Shown here piece after piece: positions 2,171-63,612 of a stretch of DNA of 64,000 nucleotides (its first letter is position 1; each line of letters begins with the position of its first letter). Location: NCBI GenBank assembly GCA_016214655.1, contig JACROC010000005.1, positions 131,078 through 195,077 of the forward strand, given 5' to 3'. The notes below the pieces were generated by a model that was not told the DNA's origin, ran no database searches, and was given only the letters and a program-made list of their open reading frames with translations. This DNA is from Candidatus Harrisonbacteria bacterium (lineage in GTDB: Bacteria > Patescibacteriota > Minisyncoccia > UBA6257 > 02-FULL-45-10c). The translations under genes were made by a program, and so were the position numbers.

Positions 2171-3769
2171 TTATTGTCCCGAAAGAACCCACTTCTTCCA
2201 CACCGCCTCTGCAGGTTTATTACGGATACTCGCCCCCAAATCGTTATAACGCACTGGCGTATACTCTGGTCCCATAAAATCATCCCACGCAAAAAATTGG
2301 GTTACCACGCCGGCAAAAGAAGTTCGTCCGGCTAGCGCCTGGAAAAACGCTTCGTAAGCATCAGCTTGCTCTTGCCAATTACGTTTGTATCCAGCTTGTT
2401 CAACCTCGATATAGTCCGCAAATTCCATGCCAGATTTCCCACTCGTGGCACCGTCATAACTCCCTGCTCCAACCTTCAAAAATATCGGCTTTTTGTAAGA
2501 TGCTAGATTCGCCTCAACTTGATTTAAAGCCCCTATCCATGCCTGGCGCATTTCAAGTATTGAGGCGTTAGGTCGTACTCTTATCCCAATAGAATAATAG
2601 AGTCCATCTACTACATCTCTAAATTTGGGATTTCCATCAAAATAAATTTTCCCTTTGTATACCTCGCGAATTGCCGTGATAATTTCTAGCCACTTTGCAT
2701 CAGCATAATCATTCAGCGGATCAACGGTTGGCGGCCTATAATGAGGATTAAGGTCAAAAGCGTCTATGCCAGCATTTTCTGCTCTTTTGGCCCAATCTAC
2801 CAAAACATTTTTCAACTGCCCGAAATACCTATCAAGCCATTCTTTCGTTTTTGACTCATATCTACCAAAATCTGTCCCCGCTCGGTTTTCTGCCGTGTTT
2901 CCTCCAGATCCCCTCGCCGCAAATGGATTAGGAGTAATATTAATATATTTTGTATAGTCAGCCCCCATATTGTAATAAAGCGTAGTTTTAAGTCCGTATT
3001 TTCGAGCCGTTTGCGCAATCATTTCCATTTCATCCGCGGTAATTGCGCCGTCACGCCCATATTTATGCTTCAACTGACCCCAAATAAATGTAGGCATTGG
3101 CGGATCTTCCTGAACAACAAAATTATCTTTATCGCCAAGCATTTCAATAAAACTATAAACACCGATTTCTTTACCACCCAAATCACGAATTCGCGCCATC
3201 GCAGAATCTAAATTCTTTCGAGTATCTTCAAAAAATTGAAAATTATAATTAATTGACCAGGTATCGTACATTTCAACACTGGGGAATAAAGCTTTTGAAA
3301 TAAACGGTATTTTCAGATCGCTCCAAGCTGACACATAATCATATATAGTTTTTTCAAACCATTTTACTTTGAGCTGTTTTTCTTCTGAAACAGAATTTTC
3401 ATTTTTTCGTAAATAGCGATAAACAAGATCTTCGCCAGTCGTAACTGGAACTGGAACTTCAAAAGTCGTACTATTTACTCGCTTCATTTCCGCCGGTTCT
3501 CTACCTTTAATTACTAGAAAGATTTTATCGGCAAGAGGAGTATTATACGGCACCGTTGTCCAAAAACTTAGCTTTGCCGGCTTCCCGACTGGCGCCTTAT
3601 CAAGCTTAGAAAACTCACAGACTTGCCGCGCCTGGGGGATTGGTAAAACCCCGCAGCTTGGCGGCCATACGTCAAAACGGATAGCCAAATACCCGAAAAA
3701 TATAAATATCAAAACCGGGCTAAGAAGAATCAGTGCCCAGCTTAATAAATTTAATAAGATTTTTTTCAT
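2171..3769 (-). CDS. membrane-anchored extracytoplasmic protein, possibly a TIM-barrel glycoside-hydrolase-like enzyme
   Basis: Start moved to MKKILLNLL, which gives an ATGA overlap with the upstream gene. Signal-anchor followed by a ~500-aa soluble domain. The hydrolase call is only a weak impression from alternating beta/alpha patterning. Confidence 0.4.
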   Translation of the reverse strand: MKKILLNLLSWALILLSPVLIFIFFGYLAIRFDVWPPSCGVLPIPQARQVCEFSKLDKAPVGKPAKLSFWTTVPYNTPLADKIFLVIKGREPAEMKRVNSTTFEVPVPVTTGEDLVYRYLRKNENSVSEEKQLKVKWFEKTIYDYVSAWSDLKIPFISKALFPSVEMYDTWSINYNFQFFEDTRKNLDSAMARIRDLGGKEIGVYSFIEMLGDKDNFVVQEDPPMPTFIWGQLKHKYGRDGAITADEMEMIAQTARKYGLKTTLYYNMGADYTKYINITPNPFAARGSGGNTAENRAGTDFGRYESKTKEWLDRYFGQLKNVLVDWAKRAENAGIDAFDLNPHYRPPTVDPLNDYADAKWLEIITAIREVYKGKIYFDGNPKFRDVVDGLYYSIGIRVRPNASILEMRQAWIGALNQVEANLASYKKPIFLKVGAGSYDGATSGKSGMEFADYIEVEQAGYKRNWQEQADAYEAFFQALAGRTSFAGVVTQFFAWDDFMGPEYTPVRYNDLGASIRNKPAEAVWKKWVLSGQ

Positions 3770-38426: not shown

Positions 38427-39165
38427 TCACATTCACAGTCACCTCTTGACTGCCCGATTCAATACTCGGGGCCTTGGCTGCCGCAAAAGCGCCTCCGCGG
38501 CCAAATGTCTCATAAACAGGTATTGGGGGCGGATACCCGCCGGCAGACTCGGAAAAAGTCACTACCCGGCCTATCCGGACCCGATTTTGTTTTGCCATCT
38601 CTTTAGCTTTGATAGATGCTTTTTCAAAAGCTTCTTCCCTGGCTACTTTCAGATATTTATCCGGCTCATCAATATTAAAGTTCAGCGATCCAATCTGGTT
38701 AATACCCAATTCCGGCAAGGAGCCTAAAATTTTACCAATTTTAGAAAAATTGCGTATCTTCACCAAAACGGTTTGCGTTAAAGTATAGCCGCTGATAAAA
38801 GTTTTCTTCGCCTTTTCATCATATTCATAACGCGGAAACAAATTATATCCGACAGTCTTTACATCTTTATCCGCAACGCCTTGTTCTTTTATAAATTGAA
38901 TTGTGGTATTCATTGTTTTATTATTCTCATCCGCAATTTTCTCAGGATCTGCTCCCTCGCTTACTACCGAAAATGTAAAAGTTGTTACATCCGGAGAAAC
39001 CGTGGTTTTACCTTCCGCGCTGACTATTAAAGTCCGTGACGGATATAAAGATCCCTGATATTTATAAAGCGTTTTCAAAGAAGACAGCCCTAATAAAATT
39101 AATACTAATAAAGACGCGTTGACCAACCACCAAAACCAATTTTTTAATTTCTCTGGATTAAACAT
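38404..39165 (-). CDS. SIMPL (DUF541) domain protein
   Basis: Signal-anchor and the periodic pattern of 26-kDa periplasmic immunogenic-protein-like proteins (GYTLTQTVLVKIRNF..., VTVNVSVTYEI). Confidence 0.65.
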   Translation of the reverse strand: MFNPEKLKNWFWWLVNASLLVLILLGLSSLKTLYKYQGSLYPSRTLIVSAEGKTTVSPDVTTFTFSVVSEGADPEKIADENNKTMNTTIQFIKEQGVADKDVKTVGYNLFPRYEYDEKAKKTFISGYTLTQTVLVKIRNFSKIGKILGSLPELGINQIGSLNFNIDEPDKYLKVAREEAFEKASIKAKEMAKQNRVRIGRVVTFSESAGGYPPPIPVYETFGRGGAFAAAKAPSIESGSQEVTVNVSVTYEIR

Positions 39166-39877
39166 AAGAAATCATTTTTTTTACTTCTTCTTTTTTCAGA
39201 CTGGCGCCGCCGACAAGGGCGCCGTCCACCTCCTTATATTTTAAGTAGTCTCTTAGATTTCGGGAATCAACTGAACCGCCGTACAATATTTTAGGGTTTA
39301 GGGTATAGGGTTTAGCGTTCAGGATCTTTCTGATATATTTTATAGTTTCTAATGCTGATTCTGGGGTTTCGGGATTGCCAGTGCCGATTGCCCAAACAGG
39401 TTCATAAGCTACGATAAAAGGGTTTAGGGTATAGGGTCTAGGGTATAGAAAGAGGCCAATTTTTAATTGGCGCTCGATTACTGCTTCTTTTTTGCCAGCA
39501 TTTTTTTCTTCAATAGTTTCGCCAACGCAAAGAACCGGGATCAGTTTATTCTCGGCGGCGGCTTTCATTTTTTTAGCTACCATTTCATCTGTTTCATCAA
39601 ACTTATGCCGGCGCTCTGAATGGCCAATGATAACGTATTTCACCCTAACGCTTTTAAGTTCTTTTGCTGAAACTTCTCCGGTAAAAGCGCCTTTTTCTTC
39701 GTAAAAAAGATCTTGGGCTCCCAGCCGAGATTTTTTTAAAACTTTTCCTACTTCTTCCAAAAAAGGAAATGGCGGCGCCACTACGACATTTTTATAATCA
39801 CTGGCTTTTGCCAAAGAAAGCGCCTCTTTGAGAGTGGCTGGATTCATTTTCCAGTTTAAAATCAGCAGCTTTGTCAT
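39158..39877 (-). CDS. tpiA: triose-phosphate isomerase
   Basis: NWKMN, IIGHSERR and AYEPVWAIGTG motifs. Confidence 0.9.
   Translation of the reverse strand: MTKLLILNWKMNPATLKEALSLAKASDYKNVVVAPPFPFLEEVGKVLKKSRLGAQDLFYEEKGAFTGEVSAKELKSVRVKYVIIGHSERRHKFDETDEMVAKKMKAAAENKLIPVLCVGETIEEKNAGKKEAVIERQLKIGLFLYPRPYTLNPFIVAYEPVWAIGTGNPETPESALETIKYIRKILNAKPYTLNPKILYGGSVDSRNLRDYLKYKEVDGALVGGASLKKEEVKKMISYV
39292..39315. repeat. G-tract heptamer repeat copy inside tpiA (encodes KPYTLNPK)
   Basis: The plus strand reads AGGGTTTAGGGTATAGGGTTTAG. Confidence 0.8.
39419..39449. repeat. G-tract heptamer repeat copy inside tpiA (encodes YPRPYTLNPF)
   Basis: The plus strand reads GGGTTTAGGGTATAGGGTCTAGGGTATAG, with four GGG tracts spaced by 4 nt. 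Confidence 0.8.
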
Positions 39878-39926: not shown

Positions 39927-41001
39927 TTAATTTCGTAAAGAAAACCAAACCTCATTTAAAAGTCTCTCGCGTAACTCATAAGTGTTAGCATGAGACAAAG
40001 CGCCAAGATAAGATTGTAATGATTGTTCAAGTGTTATTTTAGTAATATATCCTAGGTTATATTCTTTGATGCGTTTCCGTATTTTTGTAAATATGCGATG
40101 TTTTGTCTTGATTCGTATCAACCGATACTTTGGAAATATCACATGGCCAAGAAAATCAATGCCTTGATGTAACTTACGAATTATGATTTTCTTTGGATGT
40201 AGCTCCAAAGCAAGTTTCGTCTCAAGAAACTCATTGATCTGCGGCAAAAATTTTTCTAAATAATCCTGATTTTTCGAAACAATAACAAAATCATCGGTAT
40301 AGCGAATATAGTATTTTACTTTTAACCTATGTTTCATAAACTGATCAAATTCGTTCATATAGATATTGGCGAAAAGCTGCGAAGTCAAATTCCCTATCGG
40401 AATACCTTGCGCGGCGATTCTACTCTCTCTCTCTCTCTCTCTCTCGGGCAAACGTCACGCTTTTATAACTTTCAATAATAGATTCCAGAAGCCAAATGGT
40501 GTCACTATCTTTGATACGCTTTTTGATGATGGAAAGCAGGGTTACGTGATCAACGCTGTCAAAAAACTTCCTAATATCGCATTTCAATATAAAGCAAGGA
40601 TTGGCGCCATTCTTACTGACCTTTCTCACTGCTCTTTCCAAAGCTTCCACGCCTCTATGAGTTCCGTAACCGATGCGACAGGAAAACGAGGTAGAAATAA
40701 AGGTCGATTCAAAAATCGGATTGATAATCGAGAAAATAGCATGGTGCAGAACACGATCCCGAACTACCGCTTTATGAATGTGCCGTTGTTTCGGATCCTG
40801 TATATAAAAACCGGTATATGGACCGTGTTGGTAAGTTTTATTTTTCAATTCTCGTTGAAGCTGAAAAATATTTTCCTCCAGATTCCATTCAAACCGAAGC
40901 GCATCAGATTTTTTCCGCTTATCGATTTTAAAAGCCTCCCAGGCTGAAAAAAGATTCTCCGATGAAATAATTTTTGTAAACAGATTTTTATAAATTTTCA
41001 T
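39927..41001 (-). pseudogene. DGR-type reverse transcriptase, split into two ORFs by a frameshift in a (GA)11 tract
   Basis: ORFs 40420-41001 and 39927-40451 are contiguous RT halves. The N-terminus is LFSAWEAFKIDKRKK, followed by KCDIRKFFDSVDH, GIPIGNLTSQLFANIYMNEFDQF (DGR hallmark) and the catalytic RYTDDFVIV. The downstream half is offset by 1 nt. Confidence 0.85.
40423..40445. repeat. dinucleotide microsatellite (CT)11C on the plus strand, which is (GA)n on the RT coding strand
   Basis: Read directly. It encodes the RERERERE at the junction of the two RT ORFs. Confidence 0.95.
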
Positions 41002-41015
41002 AAATAATTACCACT

Positions 41016-41366
41016 ATGGATGACTTCGATATACCAATCTTTAAAAAATCATATGAGCTCTATAAGACCTTTTACGGATATCGGCTCATGGTCTCCAAAC
41101 AAGATCGCTATACCCTGTGGCAGCGCTGTGAAAATACTATTTTGGATCTCTTGGAAAACATCTTATTGGCCAGCCAATTATCCAAAGAAGCTAAATTGCC
41201 GGCATTGGAAAAATCCAGCCTGAAATTGAATCTCCTTCGGATTCTCCTCAGGCTTTCCAAAGAAACCAAGGCAATCGACAATAAAAAATATCTTTACTTG
41301 GAAGAAATAATAGATGAAATAGGCAGGATGCTCGGCGGCTGGATCAAATCCACCAAAGATCGCTAA
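41016..41366 (+). CDS. avd: Avd-like accessory variability determinant (four-helix-bundle protein)
   Basis: 116 aa, basic and all-helical. It has the typical pattern IPIFKKSYELYKTFY...DRYTLWQRCENTILDLLENIL.A......LRILLRLSKE...IDEIGRMLGGWIK. Confidence 0.8.
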   Translation: MDDFDIPIFKKSYELYKTFYGYRLMVSKQDRYTLWQRCENTILDLLENILLASQLSKEAKLPALEKSSLKLNLLRILLRLSKETKAIDNKKYLYLEEIIDEIGRMLGGWIKSTKDR

Positions 41367-41368
41367 AC

Positions 41369-41400
41369 AAAACGCTCTCCAATTATTGGAGAGCGTTTTT
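41369..41400. terminator. bidirectional hairpin terminator between avd and the TR
   Basis: aaAACGCTCTCCaattattGGAGAGCGTTttt. Confidence 0.6.
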
Positions 41401-41416
41401 AGCGATGGGAGAAATG

Positions 41417-41535
41417 ACTTCCGAGAGGCACCGAGACCAATGTTGTTCCACCTGTTGTCATCCCAGTTGTTGTTGACGTTCAGGCCATTGCCGTCGAAGT
41501 TGCCCACATTGACGCGGTTGCCGTCCGACGTGACA
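41417..41535 (-). repeat. DGR template repeat (TR)
   Basis: 119 bp that align without gaps to 41952-42070. The TR reading frame carries 11 AAC codons (VTSDGNRVNVGNFDGNGLNVNNNWDDNRWNNIGLGASRK). Confidence 0.85.
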
Positions 41536-41821
41536 AATTTGCTCGCCCCCGTCTTTGGCACTGAAAGTCGAGGTTTGCTGTCGCCTAAGGCGACTTATAT
41601 CCTCTTCTTTCTGAATTTTATTTAGGAGCACTCCGATGTTCATCGGAGACCTCCGCTAGAAGCAAGCAAGAAGTTCTGTTCTCCATCTTTATTCACACGC
41701 TATCGCACTCCGTAGAGATGCGACACTCTGGTGACGTCTCAAAGATGAGACATCTTGCGGGATTAAACCGTGGCCTAATCTACATTAGCAAGATATTTAT
41801 ATTGTAATAAATTTGTAGAAA

Positions 41822-41861
41822 TAAAAAAAGAAGCCCCCGGCGCAAAAATCGCGCCGGAGGC
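41822..41861 (-). terminator. rho-independent terminator of the DGR target gene
   Basis: The minus strand reads GCCUCCGGCGCgauuuuuGCGCCGGGGGCUUCUUUUUUU. Confidence 0.6.
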
Positions 41862-41905
41862 TCAAGAGTTCAAGAGAGACAATCCCTCCAGAACTCAAAC
41901 TTCAT

Positions 41906-41945
41906 CCTTCGACTTCGCTCAAGATGACCCTGAGCTTGTCGAAGG
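41906..41945 (-). promoter_or_regulatory. two-part hairpin immediately 3' of the VR
   Basis: CCTTCGAC-aa-GCTCA-gggtcatct-TGAGC-gaa-GTCGAAGG (minus strand), starting 1-2 nt after the target stop codon. Confidence 0.5.
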
Positions 41946-41946
41946 G

Positions 41947-42774
41947 TCAGAACTTCCGAGAGGCACCGAGACCAAGGGAGCCCCCCCTGCCGTCATCCCA
42001 GCCGCGGAAGACGAACAGGCCATCGCCGTCGAAGAAGCCCACAACGACGCGGTAGCCGTCCGACGTGACATCCGTGGTTCGCGCATACCTCGTCGGGTTC
42101 AGATAGATGCCGTTTTTCCGGTAATAGAGAATGTCCTTGAGGACTTCCTCTACTGCGGTCGGCACCTCGTACCCTTGAGGCAGCATAGCCACTTGGTCCT
42201 GGTAGGTCTTAGACTCGGAGTTCGGAACGATCTCCAGAGGCATCAGATACCACCGGAACTTCGCGGTCAGCTTGGTTGCCCAGGTTTGCTGAGAATACCA
42301 CGAACTGGGCGCGTAGCTTGCGAACTTTGGCTGGCCGTTTTGCGGATGCAGCTCCTGCAAGTGGAGGATGGTGAGCGGTTTCCCGTTCACGTTCTCGAGC
42401 CCCAGAAACGCGAAGTGCGTTTCTTTGACTGTCTTGCCTTTGACGAGCGGGCAAGGGGCGTTGAGAACATCCTCTCCCCACGGGAACTCAGCCACTTCTC
42501 GGAGCTGCTTCTTGGTGAACTTCACGCTGTACAGCGCGGTCCACTCTTCCACTCCGAAGAAGTTCTTGCCCTGAATGGCGCGAACCACCTGGTGATTCGC
42601 CGAACCCGACGCTTTGCCGCGAAGCATGAACTCGGCTACGCGTTTCGCGTAATCCGGCTCAGCCCGCAAGCGAGCGAGGTGCTCGGTTGAGACTCCGTGA
42701 TCCTGGAGCGCTTTCAAGGTCGCTCCGACTTCTCCGTAACTGGCTTTCCAGAGACCGCCTGGGTTTGTGCTCAT
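41947..42774 (-). CDS. DGR target (variable) protein, 275 aa, with no signal peptide
   Basis: GC-rich ORF with AGGAGG 8 nt upstream of the ATG. The C-terminal 40 aa (VTSDGYRVVVGFFDGDGLFVFRGWDDGRGGSLGLGASRKF) are encoded by the VR. Confidence 0.85.
   Translation of the reverse strand: MSTNPGGLWKASYGEVGATLKALQDHGVSTEHLARLRAEPDYAKRVAEFMLRGKASGSANHQVVRAIQGKNFFGVEEWTALYSVKFTKKQLREVAEFPWGEDVLNAPCPLVKGKTVKETHFAFLGLENVNGKPLTILHLQELHPQNGQPKFASYAPSSWYSQQTWATKLTAKFRWYLMPLEIVPNSESKTYQDQVAMLPQGYEVPTAVEEVLKDILYYRKNGIYLNPTRYARTTDVTSDGYRVVVGFFDGDGLFVFRGWDDGRGGSLGLGASRKF
41952..42070 (-). repeat. DGR variable region (VR)
   Basis: There are 22 mismatches to the TR. 21 of them fall where the TR coding strand has A, and all 11 TR AAC codons are changed. 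The one exception is T->G (TGG->GGG). An invariant 3' block GGTCTCGGTGCCTCTCGGAAGT is shared with the TR. Confidence 0.85.
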
Positions 42775-56870: not shown

Positions 56871-57880
56871 TATCGTTTATTAAGCAAAGTCCTTTTATAT
56901 ACATCTAAATGATTCAAGATAATGCCGGCGCCTTTGGCTACGCAGAAGATCGGTTCTTCGGCTATATAAGTTTCTACGCCGGTCATGCGCTTAAAAAATT
57001 CATCAATATAGCGGAGCTGAGCGCCGCCGCCGGATACGATAATCCCCTTTTCCATAATATCCGCCACCAATTCCGGAGGAGTTTCGTTAAACACATTTTT
57101 AACCGATCCGGCAATATCAATAAGATGCTGATTCAAGGCATCGGCGACCTCGTTGGAATTGACAATAATATCCTTCGGCAATCCGGAAACCATGTCCCGG
57201 CCCCGTATCTGCAATTCCAGCTTGTCTTTAGAGGGAAGCGCGGCGCCAACTTCAATTTTAATCAGCTCGGCAGTTTGTTCACCTATGTGAAGCGCGTATT
57301 TCTTTTTAATATAATCTGTAATAGCTTGGTCAAATTTATTACCGGCCACCCGCAAACTGGACCAAGATACAATACCACCAAGAGAAATAACCGCAACTTC
57401 CGATGTGCCCCCGCCGATGTTAATAATCATATTTCCGGAAGAATTATTAATAGGAATACCAGCTCCAAGCGCAGCCAGCAGCGGTTCTTTAACGATATAA
57501 GCCTCTTTAGCGCCTGCTTCTTTAGCGGCATTCATAATTGCCCGCCGTTCAGTCGGCGTAATGCCCGCCGGAGCGGAAATAACCACATCCGGCCTGACTA
57601 AATTAAATCGCCCGGTGGCTTTAGCAATGAAATATTTAAGCATTGCTTTGGTAATGTAATAATCAGCAATCACGCCGTCCTTAAGCGGCCGATAAGCGGC
57701 AATGTCGCCTGGAGTTTTACCAACCATATCTTTGGCTTCTCGGCCGACAGCTAAAACACCGTTATCAGGCAAACTAAGCGCAACAATAGTCGGCTCATTG
57801 ATAATAAATCCTTTCCCCGGAACAAATACGATTGTATTTGCCGTACCAAGGTCTATGCCTATTTTTCTAGTAAACATCAA
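56870..57880 (-). CDS. mreB: second MreB paralog
   Basis: IGIDLGTANT, NIGGGTSE and SGGGAQL motifs. Confidence 0.9.
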   Translation of the reverse strand: MMFTRKIGIDLGTANTIVFVPGKGFIINEPTIVALSLPDNGVLAVGREAKDMVGKTPGDIAAYRPLKDGVIADYYITKAMLKYFIAKATGRFNLVRPDVVISAPAGITPTERRAIMNAAKEAGAKEAYIVKEPLLAALGAGIPINNSSGNMIINIGGGTSEVAVISLGGIVSWSSLRVAGNKFDQAITDYIKKKYALHIGEQTAELIKIEVGAALPSKDKLELQIRGRDMVSGLPKDIIVNSNEVADALNQHLIDIAGSVKNVFNETPPELVADIMEKGIIVSGGGAQLRYIDEFFKRMTGVETYIAEEPIFCVAKGAGIILNHLDVYKRTLLNKR

Positions 57881-57883
57881 TTT

Positions 57884-57951
57884 AGTGGACTAGCCACTAG
57901 CGATTAGCCACTAGTATTTTTCTAGTCGCTAATCACTAAACACTAGTCGCT
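57884..57951. repeat. long imperfect intercistronic hairpin built from CTAG-containing short repeats
   Basis: AGTGGACTAGCCACTAGCGATTAGCCACTAG-tattttt-CTAGTCGCTAATCACTAAACACTAGTCGCT. The right arm overlaps the murA stop. Confidence 0.6.
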
Positions 57952-62122: not shown

Positions 62123-62896
62123 CTATTTTTTCTTTTTTGAAGTCTTCTTTTTCGCGATTTTCTTTTCTTTTTCTGCTTCAACTGGTTTCACTTCTAATTC
62201 CTTGACTTCGATATTGGAAATTTTTTCAAAATGATCCTTCAGGATATTACTGGCTTTATGCAGGGCCGCCGAAGGAGTGATACTGCCATCCGTGGTAATG
62301 GAAACAATCAAACGATTATAATCGGTCCGGTCTCCAACGCGCATGTTTCCTACCGAAAAATTAGCCTTTACTACCGGAGAAAAAGAGGCGTCCAAAGCGA
62401 TTGCGCCAATTGGCAACTTTTCAGATTTAGCCGATTCAACTGGAACAAAACCCAATCCCCGTTCAACTCGTAATTCCATTTCCAATTCAGATGACTTACT
62501 GGTTAAAGTAGCAACTTTGACATCCGGAGTGATCAAGTCTACTTCAGAATTTAATTCGATATCAGAAGCCGTAACAGCTTTCCCGCCTTTTACTTTAAGA
62601 GTCAAAGTCTGCGGCTCGTCAGTATGCAGGCGGAAACGGATCTTTTTCAAATTCAATCCCATTTCTACCATGTCCTCCATAACGCCACTCAAACTGGAAA
62701 ATTGATGCTGTACATTTTTAACTTTAAATTGAGTTATGGCTGCGCCGGGCAAAGACGAAAAAAGAACCCGCCTCAGAGCGTTTCCGACAGTCAAACCATA
62801 ACCAGTATAGAGACCCTCAATTTCAAAAACTCCCTCGGTATCCGTCTCCGAAACCTTTTTAATAGTTACCGACTCACTTAAATAAGCAAATTGCAT
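62123..62896 (-). CDS. rpoA: RNA polymerase alpha subunit; N-terminal domain only, followed by a Lys-rich tail
   Basis: GYGLTVGNALRRVLFSSLPGAAIT and the rest of the alpha-NTD. The protein ends after ~235 aa of NTD with EKEKKIAKKKTSKKKK. Confidence 0.9.
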   Translation of the reverse strand: MQFAYLSESVTIKKVSETDTEGVFEIEGLYTGYGLTVGNALRRVLFSSLPGAAITQFKVKNVQHQFSSLSGVMEDMVEMGLNLKKIRFRLHTDEPQTLTLKVKGGKAVTASDIELNSEVDLITPDVKVATLTSKSSELEMELRVERGLGFVPVESAKSEKLPIGAIALDASFSPVVKANFSVGNMRVGDRTDYNRLIVSITTDGSITPSAALHKASNILKDHFEKISNIEVKELEVKPVEAEKEKKIAKKKTSKKKK

Positions 62897-62900
62897 TTTA

Positions 62901-62973
62901 GTTAGGGGTTAGGGGTTAGGGGTTAGGGGTTAGAAATTTACTAAACCCTCAACCCTATACCCTCGACCCTCAA
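62901..62973. repeat. (GTTAGGG)4 tandem heptamers facing a CCCT-rich inverted arm; rpsD-rpoA intercistronic hairpin
   Basis: GTTAGGGGTTAGGGGTTAGGGGTTAGGGGTTAG-aaattta-CTAAACCCTCAACCCTATACCCTCGACCCTCAA. Confidence 0.85.
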
Positions 62974-62982
62974 TTTATTAAT

Positions 62983-63594
62983 TTATTTAGAATAATAATC
63001 GACGACCATATTTACATCAAACAAAACCTCCATATCTTTAGGCAAGGAAACCACTTCGCCTTCAAATTTTTCCTTGTCCAATTTTAGCCAAATTGGCGCT
63101 TCGTATTTTTTTAATCGTTCTCCCAAATCTTTTAATTGCGCGATATCTTTAGATTGCGGTCGGATACCAATTTTATCTCTAACCCGCACCAAATAAGAAG
63201 GGATACCGACTTTTTTTCCGTTAACAACAATATGCCCGTGGCTGACCAATTGGCGCGCCAGAGATCTCGACGGAGCAAGGCCTAACCGAAAAACCGCATT
63301 ATCCAGTCTGCGCTCCAATAATTGAATGATCATCTGTCCGGTTACACCCGGATTCTTAACGGCAGTGACAAAAATCTTTTTCATCTGTGCTTCCCGGATG
63401 CCATAACTGTATTTAATTTTTTGCTTTTCCTGCAGCTGTTGGCCAAATTCCGAATAAGCATGCCGGTCTTTACCATGCAATCCAGGCCGATATGCTTTTT
63501 TGATCATTACACATTTTGGTGAATTACAACGATGCGCTTTCAAGAAAAGCTTAGTTCCCAATGACCGTTCTTTTTTTTCTCTGGTATCAAACAT
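62983..63594 (-). CDS. rpsD: 30S ribosomal protein S4
   Basis: The N-terminus has LFLKAHRCNSPKC, and the S4 domain has RLDNAVFRLGLAPSRSLARQLVSHGHIVVNGK. Confidence 0.9.
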   Translation of the reverse strand: MFDTREKKERSLGTKLFLKAHRCNSPKCVMIKKAYRPGLHGKDRHAYSEFGQQLQEKQKIKYSYGIREAQMKKIFVTAVKNPGVTGQMIIQLLERRLDNAVFRLGLAPSRSLARQLVSHGHIVVNGKKVGIPSYLVRVRDKIGIRPQSKDIAQLKDLGERLKKYEAPIWLKLDKEKFEGEVVSLPKDMEVLFDVNMVVDYYSK

Positions 63595-63612
63595 GTTGAA
63601 AAAATTAATTTA

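Follow-up and report, generated by a model that had tools for sequence, protein, structure and literature searches.

The 64-kb stretch of DNA analyzed here (hereafter the window) comes from a metagenome-assembled genome (MAG) of Candidatus Harrisonbacteria (Parcubacteria, Patescibacteria), the single genome from which the element under study is known. This element, located between the genes rpsD and rpoA, consists of two G-rich tandem arrays in convergent orientation, both of them simple sequence repeats (SSRs) with heptanucleotide units, and its recent gain is well supported. We propose that the two arrays fold the polycistronic mRNA into a hairpin that would affect its processing or stability and slightly lower the translation of rpoA. 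The complete explanation, including both the identity of the element and the action of its hairpin, has in our view a probability of about 0.55. The identity as a recent pair of SSRs is held with much more confidence than the effects on expression.

The spacer covers 86 nt of the minus strand (62897..62982), from the stop codon of rpsD to the start codon of rpoA as delimited by the open reading frames (ORFs). The upstream cistron, rpsD (62983..63594, minus strand), encodes the ribosomal protein S4 (203 aa, orthologues labelled PF00163/PF01479), and the downstream cistron, rpoA (62123..62896, minus strand), encodes a protein of 257 aa. The Pfam labels of the orthologous genes give the order S13-S11-S4-RpoA-L17-L13-S9 on the minus strand, which corresponds to the alpha operon, as stated in a preliminary description of the element made from the sequence alone. 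Read on the plus strand, the spacer consists of TTT-A-(GTTAGGG)x4-GTTAG, AAATTTA, CTAAACCCTCAACCCTATACCCTCGACCCTCAA (62941-62973), and then TTTATTAAT. The first arm (62901..62933, plus strand) is a perfect array of (GTTAGGG)x4 followed by GTTAG, whose G-rich strand is antisense to the operon and for which Tandem Repeats Finder reports a period of 7, 4.7 copies, 100% matches, and a score of 66. Its mRNA form, (CUAACCC)x4-CUAAC, ends 4 nt 5' of the rpoA AUG. In each of the three frames, the array has stop codons, TAA in the sense strand (one every 7 nt) and TAG in the antisense strand. A loop of seven A/T nucleotides (62934..62940, AAATTTA on the plus strand and UAAAUUU in the mRNA) separates it from the second arm (62941..62973, minus strand), an imperfect array that is G-rich in the mRNA (UUGAGGG UCGAGGG UAUAGGG UUGAGGG UUUAG; period 7, 4.3 copies, 78% in Tandem Repeats Finder) and begins 9 nt past the rpsD stop. 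Direct reading of the sequence thus recovers the two arms, the 7-nt loop, and the exact composition of the first array given in the preliminary description. The unit of the second arm, AGGGTNN, defines a family that is also present in tpiA. Within the window, GTTAGGGGTTAGGG with at most 2 mismatches has 5 matches for 0.41 expected (none of 100 dinucleotide shuffles reached 5), and AGGGN3AGGGN3AGGG has 8 matches for 0.31 expected, all of them in tpiA and in the rpsD-rpoA spacer. On the plus strand of the window, GGG is about 3 times rarer than CCC, which makes the G-rich arrays there conspicuous.

We compared this spacer with those of 13 species-level relatives (RpoA identity between 60 and 90%), the best being Harrisonbacteria and Paceibacterota MAGs, and of the 3 closest RpoA relatives from metagenomes (90%, 90%, and 86% identity). 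The heptamer element was found in none of the 13 relatives examined. A plain AT-rich spacer of ~5-43 nt is present in 11 of them, and one of 21-28 nt in the three metagenomic relatives. In an alignment of six sequences (A2), i.e., the window and its five closest relatives, the gene ends are conserved and a gap of 60-66 nt faces the element in all five relatives. The element is therefore a lineage-specific insertion. The comparison with related genomes, which the preliminary description had called for, could thus be made on 13 relatives, and its outcome is that the repeat is not conserved; judging from these sequences, the repeats do not appear to be a conserved control element, and a conserved role in the control of rpoA is unlikely.

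Two relatives, L003 and L005, carry an unrelated insert of ~95 nt in the same spacer, with one hairpin of the same architecture (~78 nt; L003:2917-2993 and L005:2912-2991; -27.6 and -24.4 kcal/mol, respectively). This hairpin is conserved with apparent compensatory changes, and the insert has no Rfam match at E up to 0.1. It may be a small mobile palindrome or a structured RNA not described so far. These inserts imply that the rpsD-rpoA spacer accepts self-folding insertions repeatedly, and such insertions recur in spacers of this type, since another is found between aroA and mreB in the window (see below). The 11-mer TTTAGTAAATT (mRNA sense) occurs at two places, the rpsK stop just 5' of rpsD (63600-63612) and the hairpin loop (62931-62941), and in L029, another relative, rpsD has TTTAGTAAATAA at its end. 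Together, these two observations may be a trace of the origin of the insert.

The element is part of a broader class of repeats. A scan for tandem arrays of periods 4-12, with at least 4 copies and at least 85% matches, revealed 3 arrays of period 7 in the window and none of any other period. Extended to the window and 32 Patescibacteria loci (327 kb in total), the scan gave 15 arrays of period 7, against one or none at each of the other periods, and no array of period 7 after resampling. The count of 15 is somewhat inflated by the retrieval of several loci via tpiA, yet many of the arrays are intergenic. Heptamer arrays are thus the dominant class of tandem repeats in the clade. The G-rich family accounts for 4 arrays at 2 loci of the window, 2 of these arrays being coding. 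Matches to a CTAA-N3 periodicity in the window are restricted to tpiA, the aroA-mreB spacer, and the rpsD-rpoA spacer, and these three heptamer loci have the CTAR-NNN register in common. Hence, the repeat is not found only in the rpsD-rpoA spacer, a possibility that the preliminary description had raised against its own proposal: the family is also in tpiA, and a related hairpin lies between aroA and mreB. The combination of inverted pairs and in-frame copies is reminiscent of DNA uptake sequences such as those of Neisseria, an explanation that was rejected given that four arrays in 64 kb are far below the densities of uptake sequences.

Besides the array preceding rpoA, at least 8 others, found in the window and in relatives, stop 0-10 nt short of a start codon or overlap it (e.g., window mreB, L023:1295, L023:3870, L024:1674, L037:3395, L169:4882, L170:7353, and L170:2076), usually with the CTAA-containing strand as the sense strand. 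Further arrays follow stop codons or form hairpins. A hairpin of the same design fills the aroA-mreB spacer (57878..57942), which has 65 nt in the window and 13 nt in the relative L031. This hairpin (57887..57950, minus strand) is made of inverted heptamer arrays with a CTAG/CTAA core, whose arms have about four units each (CUAGUGG CUAAUCG CUAGUGG CUAGUCC) and are separated by a 7-nt loop (AAAAAUA). The predicted fold has -34.1 kcal/mol (z = -6.05), includes the aroA stop codon within the stem, and ends 10 nt before the mreB AUG. It has no G-tracts and cannot form a G-quadruplex (G4). The two hairpins of the window have a common CTAR core and no sequence likeness beyond it.

Heptamer arrays of other sequences were seen in distant Parcubacteria, including an inverted AGTAAGT/CTTACTG pair after groEL (L169:20022-20090), five units of CAAAAAT/CAAAAGT within a DNA ligase gene (L169:2602-2641), and (TTCATGA)x4.7 overlapping the start of mreB (L170:2076-2109). 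Perfect arrays of (GGGGTTA)4-5 or (AGGGTAT)4, each with a C-rich heptamer arm behind it that is inverted and imperfect, were also observed in unrelated viral and metagenome contigs, mostly with a GC content of 0.49-0.66 (L168:842-960 and 2878-3000, L044:5851-5960, and L159-L167), and seven near-identical viral contigs have a recurrent (GGGGTTA)3.6 locus. The convergent-pair design is thus widespread. Among the matches listed by a scan of metagenomes with the pattern AGGGTNNAGGGTATAGGGTNNAGGG, most were telomere-like arrays, long and degenerate, and came from short contigs of ~45-60% GC, which are presumably eukaryotic. The informative matches among those listed were few (L048, L044, and L128).

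The other locus of the G-rich family in the window is tpiA (39158..39877, minus strand), which encodes triosephosphate isomerase (TPI) and carries two in-frame arrays of the AGGGTNN family. Array 1 (39290..39323, plus strand; TTTAGGG TTTAGGG TATAGGG TTTAGCG) is read on the minus strand as N-A-K-P-Y-T-L-N-P-K, in the loop preceding the 'LYGGSV' strand. Array 2 (39419..39448, plus strand; AGGG TTTAGGG TATAGGG TCTAGGG TATAG), which has a canonical G4 motif on the plus strand, is read as L-Y-P-R-P-Y-T-L-N-P, in the loop preceding 'AYEPVWAIGTG'. The alignment of TPI homologues shows that the heptamers encode (L)YP[KR]PYTLNP(K) before 'AYEPVWAIGTG', before 'LYGGSV', or before both. Among the 120 best TPI homologues, 11 have the heptamer-encoded peptide (YPKPYTLNPK) in one or other of these loops, with a patchy distribution extending down to 53% identity. 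The DNA string CCCTATACCCTAAACCCT (18-24 nt) is identical in tpiA of the window and of L033 (10430-10474), L035 (10435-10464), L037 (10071-10110), L169, and L170, and it is also found in the G arm of the rpsD-rpoA spacer, in a prepilin-like leader, and close to the start of a tpiA gene on its upstream side (see below). The TPI orthologues bearing it have 53-83% protein identity and an overall nucleotide identity of ~70-73%, with only ~55% of identical residues encoded by the same codon. The string includes rare codons (CCC 12%, CTA 5%, AAC 20%, and CCT 15%), and its exact coding has a probability of 1.9e-5 under the codon usage of the window. In other tpiA orthologues, the loops in question hold heptamer arrays that are unrelated (GTCATNN, AGTCAAA, and the complement of the latter). 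In L170, (CCCTAAA)4-5 is intergenic and (CCCTATA)6 lies nine nt upstream of the tpiA start. The family also serves as coding sequence outside tpiA: a groundwater contig (L048, GC 0.41) has two direct copies of AGGGTCTAGGGTATAGGGTTTAGGG (273-364), the first of which encodes on the opposite strand a type IV prepilin-like leader, MPLLYPKPYTLDPKHG/FSLIEILIALFFI (MPLLYPKPYTLDPKHG/FSLIE).

A telomerase-like or otherwise reverse transcriptase-templated origin of these arrays was considered and rejected: the reverse transcriptase located 49 nt upstream of tpiA belongs to a complete diversity-generating retroelement (DGR), and tpiA orthologues bearing the same arrays lack a neighboring reverse transcriptase. 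The DGR (39927-42774) comprises a target gene (41947..42774, minus strand) with the variable repeat (VR) at its 3' end (41952-42070), the template repeat (TR; 41417-41535), and a bAvd-like ORF (41016..41366, plus strand); 21 of the 22 mismatches between TR and VR are at adenines of the TR on the minus strand. Owing to a frameshift at a (CT)11.5 run (40423-40445), the reverse transcriptase is encoded as two ORFs (40420..41001 and 39927..40451), and it may be phase-variable or inactivated.

To assess which structure the spacer is expected to adopt, we folded each strand with the G-quadruplex option of ViennaRNA. The mRNA strand is predicted to form a hairpin (62904..62970, minus strand) with 21 base pairs in five helical blocks and -29.7 to -30.7 kcal/mol. 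The pairing takes place in AGGG/CCCU blocks that involve about two thirds of each arm, and folding thus bears out the imperfect, block-wise paired mRNA hairpin proposed in the preliminary description. Because the pairing is block-wise, a search for inverted repeats based on exact seeds misses this hairpin. The base of the stem lies 12 nt past the rpsD stop and 7 nt 5' of the rpoA AUG. An intrinsic terminator is ruled out: the hairpin is followed by CUAACUAAAAUG, and the spacer contains neither a terminator-like site (recognized by its U-run) nor a promoter-like one. A known leader RNA of the alpha operon or of another ribosomal protein operon was rejected as well, no Rfam family or covariance model having reached its gathering score anywhere in the window.

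Canonical G4 motifs are indeed present on both strands, as noted before: GGGG(TTA)GGGG(TTA)GGGG(TTA)GGGG on the plus strand and GGG(TCGA)GGG(TATA)GGG(TTGA)GGG on the minus strand. Only four such motifs occur in the 64 kb, and 3 of them are in the AGGGTNN/GGGGTTA heptamer family. For the mRNA, folding predicts that the hairpin (-29.7 kcal/mol) is ahead of a three-tier G4 of the G arm (-8.4 kcal/mol) by ~21 kcal/mol. On these predicted energetics, we reject an RNA G4 as the chief structure of the mRNA, and the G4 previously suggested for this strand would be transient at best. The reverse is predicted for the plus strand of DNA when single-stranded, where a four-tier G4 of (GGGGTTA)4 has -31.8 kcal/mol and the hairpin -15.9 kcal/mol, whereas the single-stranded minus strand retains the hairpin. 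These DNA energies use RNA-derived parameters and are only indicative. The G4 is hence predicted to be favored only on the plus strand of DNA, in its single-stranded form. The plus strand is the template for transcription of the alpha operon. Since the GC skew is between -0.09 and -0.22 across the whole window and 56 of the 64 genes are on the minus strand, it is probably also the leading-strand template, and would therefore be rarely single-stranded.

These results suggest the following scenario. In one lineage of Candidatus Harrisonbacteria, the rpsD-rpoA spacer underwent an insertion or expansion of 60-66 nt. The (GGGGTTA)4.7 array is still perfect and therefore expanded recently, most simply by polymerase slippage. 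The other arm, (AGGGTNN)4, is degenerate and older and belongs to the tpiA family. Facing each other, the two arrays would fold the polycistronic mRNA into a stem-loop that is imperfect, has about -30 kcal/mol, and occupies nearly the whole spacer. The insert is probably tolerated since its self-folding brings the stop and start codons near each other again, in a spacer that would otherwise have ~20-30 nt. The stem-loop could act as a barrier to 3'-exonucleases or as a processing point, separating the ribosomal protein part of the transcript from its rpoA-rplQ part. By partly masking the C-rich array close to the start codon, it may also mildly lower the independent initiation of rpoA. Unmasking by an upstream ribosome seems unlikely, because a ribosome at the rpsD stop, given the known size of its footprint, would not reach the first paired base. 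The formation of G4 would be secondary in this process, and a specific regulator is not needed.

The cistron that would be affected has features of its own. Only 9 of the 64 predicted genes of the window have a Shine-Dalgarno-like motif, and rpoA has none. The encoded RpoA comprises only the N-terminal dimerisation and insert domains (PF01193 and PF01000) followed by a lysine-rich tail, and lacks the alpha C-terminal domain. The same two domains are found in all of its 120 best homologues (241-289 aa), which suggests, as far as sequences can tell, that the clade is devoid of the alpha C-terminal domain.

Several points weigh against the proposed scenario. The effects on mRNA stability and on the translation of rpoA are purely inferred. 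The z-score of the fold is modest (-2.4 to -2.9), because shuffled sequences retain the G-rich and C-rich composition of the arms. As the element is carried by one genome, covariation in the hairpin cannot be assessed. The abundance that defines the published heptamer classes is genome-wide, whereas ours concerns a 64-kb window of a 271.6-kb contig. When the threshold is lowered to 3 copies, arrays of period 7 in the 45 nt upstream of start codons are no more frequent than those of period 4 (4 of 366 genes each). We thus do not claim a strong general rule placing heptamers upstream of starts, the bias being clear only at 4 copies or more. The length of four units, described as a G4 signature by Rehm et al., could indicate that G4 formation is selected, but the aroA-mreB arrays, with ~4 units per arm, lack G-tracts, and four units are for this reason not an argument for such selection. 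Finally, simple slippage does not explain the conservation of the tpiA arrays at the DNA level: that the same heptamer string is kept across distant orthologues argues against pure slippage. The recurrence of CCCTATACCCTAAACCCT could mean that there is a sequence-specific binding protein, a process of templated copy-paste or gene conversion, or a signal recognized in cis on DNA or RNA, in which case the rpsD-rpoA hairpin would be one functional site of a clade-wide system; we regard this as distinctly improbable.

Other explanations give the element a function or an origin different from those of our scenario. The (CUAACCC)4 array close to the rpoA AUG might be a landing pad, pyrimidine-rich and single-stranded, for translation initiation or for a protein (S1 or a Csp/CsrA-like one), which the G-rich array would sequester, making it switchable. 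Such a role was proposed for the TAACTGA repeats, including those in ribosomal protein operons (MacGregor 2015, PMC4679880), and it would fit the rarity of Shine-Dalgarno-like motifs, their absence before rpoA, and the start-proximal arrays with a CTAA-containing sense strand. Yet the array is missing before rpoA in all relatives, which translate this gene from a spacer that is AT-rich and plain, its predicted state in the mRNA of the window is base-paired instead of single-stranded, the enrichment upstream of starts is weak at the 3-copy threshold, and the binding protein is only putative, all of which makes the landing pad unlikely. We consider quite unlikely that the element was selected as a G4 or i-motif, with (GGGG TTA)4 in the template DNA or (GGG N4)4 in the nascent mRNA pausing the polymerase, the replisome, or ribosomes and thereby tuning rpoA-rplQ. 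The motifs on both strands, the concentration of the window's G4 motifs in the heptamer family, and the energies of the single-stranded plus strand would agree with it, and the exactly four G-tracts per array are both the minimum for a G4 and the preferred length in Rehm et al. (PMC4692102), who showed the formation of G4 and i-motifs in vitro by related heptamers. Moreover, the G arm is transcribed ~25 nt ahead of its C-rich partner, which leaves room for a transient RNA G4. Against this, the mRNA hairpin wins by a large predicted difference, the DNA energies are RNA-derived and DNA is normally duplex, a hairpin of the same design without G-tracts exists between aroA and mreB, and the element is not kept in relatives. 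Rehm et al. found no regulatory role for their heptamers either.

Equally improbable is the insertion of a miniature mobile palindrome, akin to repetitive extragenic palindromic (REP) sequences or MITEs (miniature transposable elements with inverted repeats), the heptamer periodicity of which would be incidental. The clean insertion of 60-66 nt relative to the relatives, its palindromic nature, and the aroA-mreB spacer with a palindromic insertion of its own, comparable in size and design, are what one would expect from such an element, as is the patchy presence of CCCTAWA, with identical DNA, in two tpiA loops (11 of 120 orthologues) and in the pilin-like leader of L048. Nevertheless, neither the window nor the related loci examined contain a second near-identical copy (the transposases associated with REPs, RAYT, were not searched), the two hairpins of the window share only the CTAR core, there are neither terminal inverted repeats apart from the arrays nor a target-site duplication, and a perfect array of 4.7 copies is better explained by local slippage. 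The alpha operon of E. coli is under autogenous control, and the stable structure just upstream of rpoA could accordingly be read as a dedicated cis-regulatory RNA, e.g., a site for S4, another ribosomal protein, or RNA polymerase that feeds back on rpoA; the different hairpin conserved with compensatory changes in the same spacer of L003 and L005 would be in line with this reading. It is very improbable, considering the lack of a match in Rfam, the absence of the element from all close relatives, its nature as a low-complexity repeat of a family also found inside tpiA, and the perfect array, which indicates a recent expansion instead of a refined binding site. As for an assembly artefact, i.e., a chimeric join that imported eukaryotic telomere-like reads, arrays of the AGGGTNN type abound in telomeric contigs of eukaryote-like character among the metagenome matches listed, and the element comes from one MAG. 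This is extremely improbable all the same: the array of 33 nt is shorter than a read and away from the contig end, the flanking genes are intact and in the correct order with ends that align perfectly with those of relatives, and the same family is in frame in tpiA of several independent assemblies. A recently gained pair of convergent SSRs that folds the mRNA thus remains our preferred explanation.

A literature search on heptamer repeats or G-quadruplexes in Patescibacteria found no paper on the subject in the library searched. We do not regard the element as a new regulatory principle. It provides a natural test case of a minimal genome, poor in Shine-Dalgarno motifs, that tolerates a structured insert of 66 nt before the essential rpoA. 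The observation on tpiA is the most useful by-product of the analysis and the lead most worth following.

The comparison with known repeat systems clarifies the nature of the element. The telomeric repeats of eukaryotes (TTAGGG and TTTAGGG) resemble it in the G-rich units of 6-7 nt, the TTAGGG core, and the potential for G4 or i-motifs. However, the array has 33 nt, lies inside an operon, and comes without a telomerase; the sole reverse transcriptase of the window is of the DGR type. The resemblance is one of letters only, and the term telomere-like used in the preliminary description is better replaced by membership in the bacterial class of heptanucleotide SSRs. In E. coli, stem-loops and REPs between cistrons (e.g., malE-malF) set differences in mRNA stability within operons. 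Like them, the element would be a stable hairpin between co-transcribed genes, from which protection of the upstream mRNA and uncoupling of the downstream one are expected. A REP family is conserved, comprises hundreds of near-identical copies of ~35 nt, and has a transposase dedicated to it, whereas the rpsD-rpoA element is unique in sequence and built of tandem heptamers. The short tandemly repeated repetitive (STRR) sequences have units that differ from those described here. These heptanucleotide repeats, which Rehm et al. 2015 (PMC4692102) cite, belong to heterocystous cyanobacteria (Calothrix PCC 7601). They share the tandem 7-nt units, are dispersed mainly in intergenic regions with no assigned function, have far more copies per genome, and are not described as start-proximal hairpins.

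Two systems are closer to the element. The TAACTGA direct repeats of marine Beggiatoaceae, Cyanobacteria, and Bacteroidetes have 2-6 units, end ~1 nt before starts that lack a Shine-Dalgarno motif, and have stops in three frames. They occur in ribosomal protein operons, including upstream of S4, and at times are in frame and encode 7-residue peptide repeats (MacGregor 2015, PMC4679880). The element is similar in its array placed 4 nt before an AUG without Shine-Dalgarno motif, its stops in three frames, and its patchy distribution. It differs in the sense unit (CUAACCC) and in being paired with an inverted G-rich partner, since TAACTGA repeats are, with few exceptions, single direct arrays for which no structure is predicted, only one of 170 being inverted. 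The G-rich heptamers of Rehm et al. 2015 (PMC4692102), GGGAATC in Xanthomonas and GGGGA[C/T]T in Nostoc, occupy ~180 loci per genome, of which most are non-coding. Four units are preferred, and each Xanthomonas genome has 70-75 convergent pairs, located between aligned ORFs. Upstream of an ORF, the G-strand is antisense and no more than 50 bp away; after a stop, it is sense and likewise within 50 bp. These repeats form G4 and i-motifs in vitro with no function found, and the same work cites the hypothesis of slippage. The element has likewise 7-nt units with a G3-4 tract repeated head-to-tail, four G-tracts per arm, and convergent arms 7 nt apart; it lies between co-oriented ORFs, with the antisense G-strand 4 nt from the rpoA start and the sense one 9 nt past the rpsD stop, varies in length and sequence among close relatives, and is capable of forming a stem-loop. 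The differences concern the units (GGGGTTA and AGGGT(NN)), the phylum, the low GC content of the genome (42%), and the G4, which here is predicted only. Hence, every positional and architectural feature of this class is found in the element, with an abundance seen only within 64 kb, and these poorly understood heptanucleotide arrays, adjacent to starts and stops, often convergent, and with G4 potential, would thereby extend to the ultra-small Patescibacteria.

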